Of a DNA stretch of 64,000 nt, positions 2,907 to 58,198 are shown piece after piece (the first letter of the stretch is position 1; every line of letters starts with the position of its first letter). The notes under the pieces are model-generated. The model was not told the origin of the DNA. It saw only the letters and a program-made list of their open reading frames with translations, and made no database searches. Position numbers and translations under genes: made by a program. The stretch is taken from contig CM075993.1 of assembly GCA_038087875.1 (NCBI GenBank), forward strand, positions 9,922,001-9,986,000, read 5' to 3'. The DNA is from Malacoraja senta. Lineage: Eukaryota.

Positions 2907-3578
2907 GACCTGTAATTACTTAGTGATCTCATTGAACACCTCCTCCTTGGGGAGCACATTTTTATGGACTAATCCCCTATTGACCGAAATATTGATTCTG
3001 CAGAACAATTTTGAATCGACACTCTATGCCGCCACCGTACCAGCTTTGCCCATGTCCACTGGCTGTACTATTCAGGACAAGATGAAAAAGCTCGCTGTGA
3101 TTGACATCATCCAGCCTACAGTCTTAACTCAATATAAACATTCGAACACAGCCCAACATTTGATTTGTTTTACTCACTGCCATTGGGGATACTCAGAAAA
3201 TCAATCACATCTATTTGCAAAAAAACAGCTTGATTGGAAATGGACCTGAATTCAGCAGAGGATGAGAATTTAATTATGACTGACAGTGCCTCCATGTCCA
3301 CCAACATTTGATGTTAAGTCTCGTTCTTGTTTTCAAATAGCTCTCGTTATCTTTACCTCACTCCTCCAACTCTGTAATATCCAATATACCTATTATCTCA
3401 AAACAGAATTAAAAAAAAATCATTTATGCATCCCGTGTTAATTGTCCCACTGTTAGTATCAGTGGAGCCCTGCAGGTCACAACTTGCAGCTGTCTGTCCT
3501 TTCACCCTTTTTGTTATTTTTAGTCTGTTTAAAAAGTTTGTTTTGGAGGTCTTTTAGTCTTTTTTTATGTGGGGGAAA

Positions 3579-10492: not shown

Positions 10493-25950
<15,458 letters not shown>

Positions 25951-42130: not shown

Positions 42131-42288
42131 AAATGTTTTATCTTACAGGCTAATAGAAATATATTGAGTGTATATGAAGGAAAGAACTGCAGATGCTGGT
42201 TTAAATTGAAGATAGACACAAAATGCCAGAGTGACTCATCGGGACAGGCAGCATCTCTGGAGAGAAGGAATGGGTGATGTTTCAGTCT

Positions 42289-42424
42289 TCTTCTTGCGTA
42301 CGGCGTGCACAGCCTAAAGTTGTAGGACAACTTGTTCTATTTGATCTTACTTGATTGTGCACGCCAGGTTGATTGCATTCGTCGAAACAGGGCAGACCAT
42401 GTGAAGGTTGCAATCTTCCACCCC
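42289..42424 (-). mobile_element. 136-bp non-autonomous retroposon with 5' HDV-like ribozyme, 3' hairpin and (AAG)n tail
   Basis: TSD ATGTTTCAGTCT at 42277-42288 and 42425-42436; tail ...TACGCAAGAAGA; 10-bp inverted repeat 42302-42311/42356-42365. Confidence 0.8.
42371..42424 (-). ncRNA. HDV-like (CPEB3-type) self-cleaving ribozyme, 54 nt, minimal P4
   Basis: GGGGUGG-AA-GAUUGCA-ACC-UUCACAU-GGU-CUGCCCU-G-UUUCGA-CGAA-UGCAAUC = P1/P2/P3/L3/P1.1/P4/J4-2. Confidence 0.78.
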
Positions 42425-44102
42425 ATGTTTCAGTCTGAAGAAGGGTCTGGACCCAAAACGTCATCCATTCCTTCTCTCCAGAGATGCTGCCTGTCCCGCT
42501 GAGTTACTCCGGCATTTTGTGTCTCTTATATTAAATGAATAATGGGTTGAATATTTTCTTTTCTCCTTTCTGTCCCTTCCCCCAACATTTGCTCAGGAGC
42601 TAGCCCTTGATCCACTTCATTTGCCCAGCAATTTCACATATGCTATTTGTGGAAACAAAAGTATGCTCTGCCATGGTTATTTGTGGAATCAGCAACGCAG
42701 CTTTCAGATGAAAATGTAATGCACAGCTTCCAAATGCATGAAGAGATCTAACAAACATTCACAGTACAAGGGAAGTAACAATATAAGTAGTATTAAACAG
42801 TAATAAACATTAGTAATAGTAGTAATAAACATTTAAAAACTAAAGATCAAGAGGGCATTACAGGAAAAAAAGTGATGAAAATTAGCTCACCTATTTACCC
42901 AGTTGAATTTCCAATGTTTCTTTTGTATATATGCTTGACAATAAAGTTCAAATACAAATAAATCTGTCTAGTTGATATGCCTTGGTGTATGAACGTACAC
43001 TAAAGATGAATAATGGGGCGACTTTCATATTTTTTATCCAAACCAAACATGTTATCCATTGGTAAGGTCTGTGGCCTGAGACTTAACTTCCTCCACACGT
43101 GCTGTCCAACCTATGCAATTCAACAGCCATAATAGTTTGCTTTCATTTTAGATTTTCATTTACTGCATTAGAGTCAGAGTCATAGAGGATAGTGTGGAAA
43201 CAGGCCCTTGGGCCCAACTCACCCACACCGGCCAACAATGTCCCAGCTACCCTAGTCCCACTTGCCTGTGCTTGGTCCATAGCGTCAAGGGTTTAGATGG
43301 GGTGCAATTCCTCAAAAGTGTTCAGGAGAGTTTTCTTAAACAGTATGTGGAGGCCCCCACACGTGAGAGGGCAACGCAGGATCTAGCATTGGGAAATTGG
43401 GAAGGGCAAGTTAATCAAGTGTGTGTGTGGAGGAGCCTTTTGGGACCAGTGACCACAGTTCGATTAGGTTTAAGATAGTTATGGATCGGGACAGAGAGTG
43501 TCCACGTTTTAAAATGCTCAACTGGGGTAAGGCCAACTTTGAGGCTATGAGAGAAGGTCTCGCTCAAGTTGACTGGAGCAGGTTACTTGAGTGGAAAGGA
43601 ACGGCCAAGTGGAATAAATCAACCCTCCTTCCTCGCTCTCCGGCTTTTTGCCTAATCTGTCCATTAACCTTTCCCACACCACCCTCCATTCCAACTTCTA
43701 GCCTCTCCTGTGCCTCTGTCCTGCACAAGATCCCACTCCCCTGCCAATCTACTTTAAACCCTCCCGTGTAGCATTCGCAAACCTTCCCCATGTATAGTTT
43801 TGCATAAAGGTAACTGGTGCCGAACCATCCAGAGATACATATACACAAACCACCACTGACGACAGAACATTCCATTCAAACACTGCATATTTCCCAATAC
43901 CTTCTTTCTCCAACCCAGTTGTTCGTGTCCAGGATAACTGTGGCAGAACTGGTAAGAAATAACAATACCAAAACTAACTTTAAGTGGAACAGAAAAAAAG
44001 ACAAAATACTGAAATAGTTCAGTGGGTCAGGCAGTATCACTGGAGAACTTGAAGGCGCGATGTTTCGGATCGGGACCCTTCTTCAGACTCGAGGTGCAAC
44101 AT

Positions 44103-45217: not shown

Positions 45218-58198
<12,981 letters not shown>

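Follow-up and report, generated by a model that had tools for sequence, protein, structure and literature searches.

In a 64,000-nt stretch of the genome of Malacoraja senta (GenBank assembly GCA_038087875.1, contig CM075993.1, positions 9,922,001 to 9,986,000 of the forward strand; hereafter the window), we analysed a 136-nt retroposon at positions 42289-42424, which we refer to as family S. We consider it likely that this element is a ribozyme-headed retroposon, which consists of a self-cleaving head of the CPEB3 type lacking helix P4, a 3' hairpin domain and an (AAG)n tail, and which is mobilised by a long interspersed element (LINE). This reading is based on the anatomy of the retroposon, its copy number, its 5' end at the first nucleotide of the fold (G1), the homology of the fold to ribozymes of the hepatitis delta virus (HDV) type, the covariation of its stems and the existence of LINEs with related heads in the same genome. 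Nucleotides of family S are numbered along the sense strand, which is the minus strand of the window, and nt 1 corresponds to window position 42424. The features of the window copy, including the flanking target-site duplications (TSDs), are as follows; R1 is a covariance model described below, and RF00622 is the Rfam model of the CPEB3 ribozyme.

42289..42424, minus strand: whole 136-nt non-autonomous retroposon of family S, from genome matches and exact-head counts
42277..42288, no strand assigned: left copy of the TSD, ATGTTTCAGTCT on the plus strand, identical to 42425-42436
42425..42436, no strand assigned: right copy of the TSD, adjoining G1 of the element, read from the sequence
42371..42424, minus strand: P4-less CPEB3-type HDV-like ribozyme fold, nt 1-54, with 30.8 bits on R1 and with RF00622 ranking first in Rfam for a copy free of decay
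42418..42424, minus strand: P1 5' strand GGGGUGG, nt 1-7, pairing with nt 30-36; retrocopies begin here
42409..42415, minus strand: P2 5' strand GAUUGCA, nt 10-16, with 7/7 Watson-Crick pairs to nt 48-54
42396..42408, minus strand: P3 ACC/GGU, nt 17-19/27-29, around L3, nt 20-26, which is UUCACAU in the window copy
42389..42395, minus strand: P1 3' strand CUGCCCU, nt 30-36, which is CCGCCCU in 18/30 copies
42378..42388, minus strand: J1/4 GU (nt 37-38), linker UUCGA (nt 39-43) and J4/2 CGAA (nt 44-47), from alignments
42371..42377, minus strand: P2 3' strand UGCAAUC, nt 48-54, pairing with nt 10-16
42302..42365, minus strand: 3' domain, a 10-bp stem around a 7-bp hairpin, from minimum free energy (MFE) and centroid folds
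42289..42295, minus strand: (AAG)n tail, AAGAAGA in the window copy, with 2 to about 12 units elsewhere in the family

Anatomy and copies of family S

An original prediction, made from the letters of the window, had described a 136-bp insert with a 12-bp TSD and an (AAG)n tail, and reading the window bore this out. The 12-bp TSD ATGTTTCAGTCT (plus strand) borders the insert on both sides, and the sense strand of the insert opens with GGGGTGG immediately past the TSD and closes with CAAGAAGA, the border between tail and TSD being uncertain by up to 3 nt (AGA). The 10-bp stem expected behind the head is formed by nt 60-69 and 114-123 and encloses a 7-bp inner hairpin in both the MFE and the centroid fold. 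This 3' domain was near-invariant across the 30 copies compared (see below), and we presume that it provides the handle for a LINE reverse transcriptase (RT). The nested MFE fold of all 136 nt was unremarkable (z = -0.99), as one would expect of a pseudoknot, for which the MFE is uninformative. The insert breaks up another, hairpin-like repeat (window 42190-42288 and 42425-42520), which is extremely abundant, has inverted-repeat arms of the type ..CTCTGGAGAGAAGGAATGGGTGA.. and ..TCATCCATTCCTTCTCTCCAGAG.., and shows a contig depth in public sequencing runs 10-30x that of family S.

The family is present in many copies. An exact 24-nt head pattern occurred 4,942 times in the 1.94-Gb genome (2,476 forward and 2,466 reverse), and an exact 25-nt tail segment, which is richer in CpG, occurred 2,928 times; the reversed control patterns of head and tail gave 0 occurrences in the whole genome. 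A DNA search of the genome returned 1,974 first-look candidates, and all 40 of those scored were 97-100% identical, 37 of them spanning nt 1-136. The 30 best-matching copies, which served as the first sample, all begin at GGGGTGG behind unrelated upstream flanks. Exact TSDs of 8-14 bp were detected by a script in 20 of these copies, and near-matches were seen by eye in most of the remaining ten. Many of the TSDs begin with AG or AGA, so that a few bases can be common to the tail and the nicked target.

Because these first 30 copies were the best matches, a second sample was chosen by the tail, taking 20 places with the exact tail segment and no exact head; loci L078 and L079 seem to be duplicates of a single locus, leaving 19 independent places. 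Here, 17 of the 20 copies start at nt 1-3 (10 at nt 1, 6 at nt 2 and one at nt 3), and the other three are 5'-truncated, at nt 89, 95 and 100. Homology upstream of G1 was found in none of the 50 copies of both samples. Variable TSDs, a simple-repeat tail, unrelated flanks and some 5' truncation are traits of retroposons without long terminal repeats (non-LTR), and we conclude that family S is a young, abundant non-autonomous non-LTR retroposon of at least about 5,000 copies.

Fold, homology and covariation of the head

All parts of the nested double pseudoknot that had been predicted for the first 54 nt (P1, P2, P3, L3 and J4/2) were found in the window copy. P1 is paired at 7/7 positions, three of them G-U, and opens with a G1-U36 wobble. 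P2 is Watson-Crick paired at 7/7 positions and crosses P1, which creates the pseudoknot, while the 3-bp P3 closes the 7-nt L3. C22 and G37 are free to form a one-pair P1.1, as drawn for CPEB3, and the putative catalytic C44 opens the J4/2 segment CGAA. The site of cleavage would lie 5' of nt 1. A P4 helix is not present: between J1/4 and J4/2, only the 5-nt linker UUCGA remains. When family S is aligned to R1 or to RF00622, the columns of P4 drop out, with CCCUGU and CGAAU on either side agreeing with the consensus.

We then compared the head with models of known ribozymes. The scan of the window copy against Rfam at E <= 10 gave no match to HDV or CPEB3; its small nucleolar RNA and microRNA matches were rated as chance. 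With L002, a copy free of decay of which 81 nt were searched, RF00622 (CPEB3_ribozyme) came out on top of 4,227 Rfam families with an E-value of 0.0031 and 19.0 bits, which is below the 35-bit gathering score of the model. The second and last match was HDV-F-prausnitzii with 13.1 bits. The segments GGGG, UUCACGU, CCCUGU and CGAAU agree in the alignment of L002 with the CPEB3 consensus, and we attribute the low score of family S on RF00622 to the replacement of P4 by the 5-nt linker. The likeness to CPEB3 expected from the window copy was thus recovered, as the best if sub-threshold Rfam family, on the undecayed copy, whereas the window copy itself stayed unlisted.

Searching the genome with RF00622 gave 102,231 first-look candidates, of which 59 were scored, with 60 matches listed. 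Thirty-nine scored candidates exceeded the 35-bit cut-off, reaching up to 64.2 bits, with lengths of 59-89 nt and almost all covering the full model. Those above the cut-off are heads of LINEs and of other retroposons. The matches sort into families A, B, C, D and E, and family F was found later, in locus L003. The heads of family A start with GGGGATC and have an 8-bp P4, those of family B start with GGGGGTC, family D has TTCTCGT as L3 and an Rfam-like P4, and family C is P4-less.

From 24 aligned ribozymes of the same genome, none of them from family S, we built the covariance model R1, which contains P2, P3 and P4. Applied to both strands of the window with the filters off, R1 found exactly 42424-42371 (nt 1-54) as a full-model match with 30.8 bits (E 1.7e-6). 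The next-best match in the window, at 53852-53930, reached 10.9 bits; it is without L3 and core and was taken as chance. With default filters, R1 detected 20 of the 30 family S copies searched (29 loci and the window copy) at 29.2-33.1 bits; the filters removed the window copy and the other copies whose L3 has decayed.

The stems covary across the related ribozyme families. Alignment A2, which was fitted to the model, holds 32 matches in 31 distinct rows, with P1 entered as a pseudoknot. Standard pairs made up 92.4% of its 642 cells, compared to 39.8-47.4% after the partners were slid by 1-3 columns, and in 18 of the 25 pairs both partners vary between families. The covariation score of 0.427 was matched by 0 of 500 shuffles, for which the value was 0.155. 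Kinship alone can beat shuffles without any structure, and the slid-partner control together with the count of compensated pairs is the stronger argument. P1 lies outside R1 and hence was not favoured by the fitting; it was paired in 87.9% of its cells and contains three compensated pairs, the unpaired cells belonging mostly to column 1 of family C. Compensated changes also affect 6/7 pairs of P2 and 2/3 pairs of P3, and all of P1, P2, P3 and P4 covary across the ribozyme families of this genome. The P1.1 and J4/2 columns are invariant and therefore carry no covariation evidence. This is covariation between families, as the copies of family S are too alike for a test among themselves. In P1 (positions 5-7), P2 (GATTGCA/TGCAATC) and P3 (ACC/GGT), the sequence of family S is unlike that of any other family, and yet family S holds 17/17 standard pairs in P1-P3, which points to selection on the fold.

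The window copy itself is probably a dead product rather than a source copy. The G-U pairs and the altered L3 had been suspected to reflect CpG decay, and the majority letters of the 30 copies support this: nt 25 is G in 21/30 copies, giving TTCACGT as L3, whereas the window copy has A25 (TTCACAT), and nt 31 is C in 18/30 copies, giving a Watson-Crick pair G6-C31 in place of G-U. Because of A25 in L3, the window copy is probably inactive; in bioRxiv 10.1101/2022.09.22.508989, G25 of HDV is described as pairing with U20 in a metal-binding wobble. Logan contigs from the public runs X1, X5, X10 and X19, which represent four organisms, cover the element at 88-95% likeness and carry the majority letters at window positions 42400 and 42394. 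Such contigs cannot show RNA ends and are neutral on cleavage and expression; among the public sequencing runs listed for the element, no run is recorded as RNA, which is likewise neutral on expression.

Ribozyme-headed LINEs and short retroposons of the same genome

Two of the families found with RF00622 provide most of the comparison with family S:

L031-L040 and L053 (e.g. L039:103-3209): family A, RTE-like LINE of 3.1 kb, first 73 nt with 59.7-64.2 bits on RF00622
L043-L050, L056 and L057: family C, P4-less ribozyme-headed retroposon of about 170 nt

The idea that a TSD-making, RTE-like LINE could mobilise the element gained substance with family A (LINE A), which combines a ribozyme head, a TSD and an (AAG)n tail. 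The copy at L039:103-3209 opens with a family A ribozyme (59.7 bits on RF00622), is flanked by the 11-bp TSD AATCACAACCT at 92-102 and 3210-3220, and ends in GACACGAAAAGAAGAAG with an (AAG)3 tail. A second copy, in L040, matches the first at both ends and shows 97% identity across 3,107 nt. Pieces of frame-broken open reading frames (ORFs) of LINE A contain the domains Exo_endo_phos (E 4.4e-5 and 23.8 bits, slightly below the family cut-off of 24.5), Exo_endo_phos_2 (E 5.4e-9) and RVT_1 (E 1.6e-33); these three frame-shifted pieces presumably derive from one original ORF. We classify LINE A as RTE-like by its architecture, as it is 3.1 kb long, has endonuclease and RT domains, lacks ORF1 and ends in a simple-repeat tail; this fits the RTE pattern of an element of about 3 kb whose single ORF, with apurinic endonuclease and RT, lies between short untranslated regions. 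Relatives of its RT, among them proteins assigned by name to a psyllid, a springtail and a tubeworm, showed identities of 55-68%, and of 52-58% in the comparison with these three sources, which could reflect a horizontal spread of this lineage. RT-like stretches in the window itself, at 51500-52386 (plus strand) and 22078-22938 (minus strand), show 25-32% amino acid identity to the RT of LINE A and probably belong to other LINE clades.

Family C shows that the P4-less design is not confined to family S. Seven of the 11 family C loci examined are flanked by TSDs of 7-12 bp; of the rest, two yielded no tail and two no TSD. Between CCCTGT and the 3' strand of P2, family C has TTCCACCAA and family S has TTCGACGAA, two segments of equal length which agree at 7/9 positions. 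The two families differ in the sequences of P1, P2 and P3 and in the body, and the helices of family C are still paired. Since the P4-less segment is common to both families despite their different helices and bodies, the P4-less design is older than family S. It appears to have been maintained through extensive compensated change, and this is the main indirect argument that a P4-less head may work. The 3' end of family C, GACTCGATAAGAAGAAG, agrees with that of LINE A at 15/17 positions and carries the same (AAG)n tail, whereas a local alignment of the 3' part of family S with that of family C showed only the tail to be alike. Family C starts one G short of the 7-nt P1 strand, leaving the terminal U of the P1 3' strand without a G1 partner.

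For the remaining families, several observations were made in passing. No LINE ORFs were found within the next 10 kb of the family B head in L041. Ribozymes of families D and E stand head to head with RT fragments on the opposite strand (L042:8-470, L052:2-475 and L054:1001-1477), which are 39-56% identical to LINE A at the amino acid level; these arrangements look like 5'-inverted LINE copies of other lineages, as from twin priming, with the inverted arm ending at G1. The family D heads (L042, L054 and L055) resemble the CPEB3 consensus of Rfam even in P2 and in the stem of P4, which is CAGATTCT/AGAATCTG in family D and CAGauuc/gaauCUG in the consensus. The family F head (L003:432-517, minus strand) reached 25.6 bits on R1 and has a long and different P4, the P3 5' strand ACC as in family S and, by eye, GG as its 3' partner. 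At L058:1001-1058 (minus strand), a family E-type ribozyme is followed very closely, within about 25 nt downstream, by ..CAAGACAAGAAGAAG; head and tail may here make up nearly all of an element of some 90 nt, for which no TSD was found.

Proposed life cycle, alternatives and significance

We propose the following life cycle for family S. A copy residing inside a host transcription unit would be transcribed by read-through, and the ribozyme head would cut just 5' of G1 and thereby fix the transcript's 5' end. The endonuclease and RT of an RTE-like LINE resident in this genome would engage the 3' hairpin and the (AAG)n tail, and the RNA would be copied into a staggered nick by target-primed reverse transcription, generating the 8-14-bp TSDs. 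LINE A and family S are alike in the class of their ribozyme head, in the tail and in TSD length. Catalysis in the P4-less form, transcription by read-through and the lineage of the mobilising LINE are the parts of this scheme that we infer.

Several points weigh against this proposal. Self-cleavage of the family S head is a prediction from the fold, and a transcription start exactly at G1 would yield the same 5' ends. As described above, the decayed window copy has no HDV or CPEB3 match in Rfam, the undecayed copy stays below the cut-off of RF00622, and the covariation holds between families only. The training set of R1 includes the P4-less family C, so R1 tolerates the deletion of P4. Regarding the mobilising LINE, no clade name occurs among the 120 listed relatives of the LINE A RT, making the RTE label one of architecture. 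A local alignment of the 3' part of family S with LINE A found the tail alike and nothing else, and a pattern search of the whole genome for a family S-type head with a P4 of 10-40 nt returned only two trivial variants. Neither the alignment nor the pattern search thus led to the parent or the exact partner LINE of family S; an autonomous LINE with both its 3' hairpin and its (AAG)n tail had been suggested as a search target, and LINE A shares the (AAG)n tail and lacks the 3' hairpin.

Among the alternatives, we regard it as unlikely that family S is an ordinary short interspersed element (SINE) with an internal promoter for RNA polymerase III (or II) within nt 1-60, starting at G1 and carrying the head as a non-cleaving relic. 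A fixed start of transcription would give an equally sharp common 5' end, and the loss of P4, the sub-threshold Rfam score and a loose B-box likeness of nt 37-46 (GTTTCGACGA), seen by eye only, are in line with it. However, no likeness to tRNA, 5S or 7SL RNA was found in the window copy by Rfam at E <= 10, and ARAGORN reported 0 genes. A promoter would also leave unexplained why a 3.1-kb LINE and family C, with its 170 nt, share their structural starting point in the fold, or why family S retained 17/17 pairs of P1-P3 while its helices diverged from those of all relatives.

It is also improbable, in our estimate, that family S is a fresh internal-deletion derivative, i.e. a bipartite non-autonomous LINE or short internally deleted element (SIDE), of an unseen RTE lineage, with its head and 3' domain representing the two ends of that LINE and with P4 lost in the deletion. 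Precedents exist in bipartite non-autonomous RTEs, whose intact 5' ends have been tied to a ribozyme (PMC5786205), and family S has a head of the class seen in the LINEs as well as their tail. Still, neither the pattern search nor the alignment with LINE A revealed a LINE with family S-type helices or with its 3' hairpin, and the presence of the 9-nt P4-less segment in family C, next to different helices and a different body, indicates that P4 was lost before family S arose. This alternative deals solely with the origin of family S and does not conflict with the mechanism proposed above. That the fold is a chance look-alike and family S a set of retropseudogenes of some small RNA is close to refuted: the nested MFE z-score of -0.99 and the missing Rfam match of the window copy would fit, but R1 matched over its full length from the first base of the element (E 1.7e-6), RF00622 and an HDV model were the sole two Rfam matches on L002, and the CPEB3 consensus recurs letter for letter in L3, J1/4 and J4/2.

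A ribozyme-headed retroposon of this kind has relatives of several sorts. HDV-like ribozymes reportedly stand at the 5' ends of RTE, R2, R4, L1Tc and further non-LTR elements, in work attributed to Ruminski et al. in 2011 and to Eickbush & Eickbush in 2010. LINE A, with a ribozyme at its very 5' end, fits this pattern, whereas family S is non-coding and 136 nt long. RTE elements with HDV-like heads are described as promoterless, co-transcribed with the host from introns and freed by self-cleavage (PMC6765202, PMC7761336). MAR4_MD, RTESINE2 and WALLSI3 are bipartite non-autonomous RTEs which keep the 5' and 3' ends of a LINE, and Kojima (2018) explicitly tied the ribozyme to the presence of intact 5' ends in bipartite elements (PMC5786205). 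R2 SIDEs and NARTc are likewise ribozyme-headed non-autonomous derivatives, which retain the LINE ends and use LINE proteins (PMC3414825, PMC3383444). Family S is short as these elements are; its head and body, in contrast, are not simply the two ends of any LINE found, and its ribozyme is P4-less. Minimal P4-less HDV-like ribozymes, including the theta type, are reported only from metagenomes and gut bacteriophages, where they occur beside tRNAs (bioRxiv 10.1101/2023.06.13.544163). They share the P4-less double-pseudoknot core with families S and C, which differ in being vertebrate retroposons with a core of the CPEB3 type.

The CPEB3 ribozyme is among the closest known systems. Family S shares with RF00622 the GGGG/CCCU P1 with G1-U, the 7-nt L3 UUCACGU with its ACGU palindrome, J1/4 GU and J4/2 CGAA; these features and the catalytic role of the first C of J4/2 are given in bioRxiv 10.1101/2022.09.22.508989. 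The CPEB3 ribozyme is described as single-copy, intronic and mammalian (PMC10274809, PMC8233481), whereas family S is multi-copy, dispersed on both strands and a retroposon head in a non-mammalian genome; moreover, its head is without P4, differs in the sequences of P2 and P3 and, at 19.0 bits, stays under the cut-off of 35. The LINE heads of this genome, on the other hand, exceed that cut-off widely, with up to 64.2 bits.

The original prediction had regarded the element as new in too broad a sense, because ribozyme-headed non-autonomous derivatives of RTE, R2 and L1Tc/ingi elements are already in print (PMC5786205, PMC3414825, PMC3383444). The general kind is known, and what looks new is a P4-less CPEB3-type head on a vertebrate element together with CPEB3-model matches on retrotransposons. 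In the literature searched, which did not cover key primary papers, so that prior description is possible, we found no P4-less HDV-type head on a vertebrate retroposon, no retrotransposon heads outside mammals passing the CPEB3 model, and neither a link of CPEB3 to RTE or fish retroposons nor a named retroposon source for it. A review has raised, in a general way, the idea that mobile elements were the source of domesticated, conserved ribozymes in vertebrates (PMC7761336).

RF00622 finds matches of up to 64 bits in this genome, both in the heads of several short retroposons and in those of RTE-like LINEs from at least three lineages. We tentatively suggest, as a possibility somewhat short of even, that the CPEB3 ribozyme is the domesticated head of a vertebrate-old RTE-type retroposon lineage and not a mammalian invention. 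The likeness extends to helices which are unconstrained by catalysis, as in the P4 of family D. The strong matches of the CPEB3 model outside mammals make the origin of this ribozyme and its debated link to HDV testable by comparative genomics.

For the family itself, the proposed reading has consequences beyond the single copy in the window. If it is true, no natural HDV-type ribozyme used in eukaryotes would be smaller than the form of about 54 nt kept in families S and C, and these two vertebrate P4-less families with their compensated changes would represent a natural minimal scaffold. Family S is an abundant and recently active short retroposon of a vertebrate without a recognisable RNA polymerase III head, whose RNA would be defined by a putative 54-nt ribozyme, and it suggests another way in which a SINE may obtain its 5' end.

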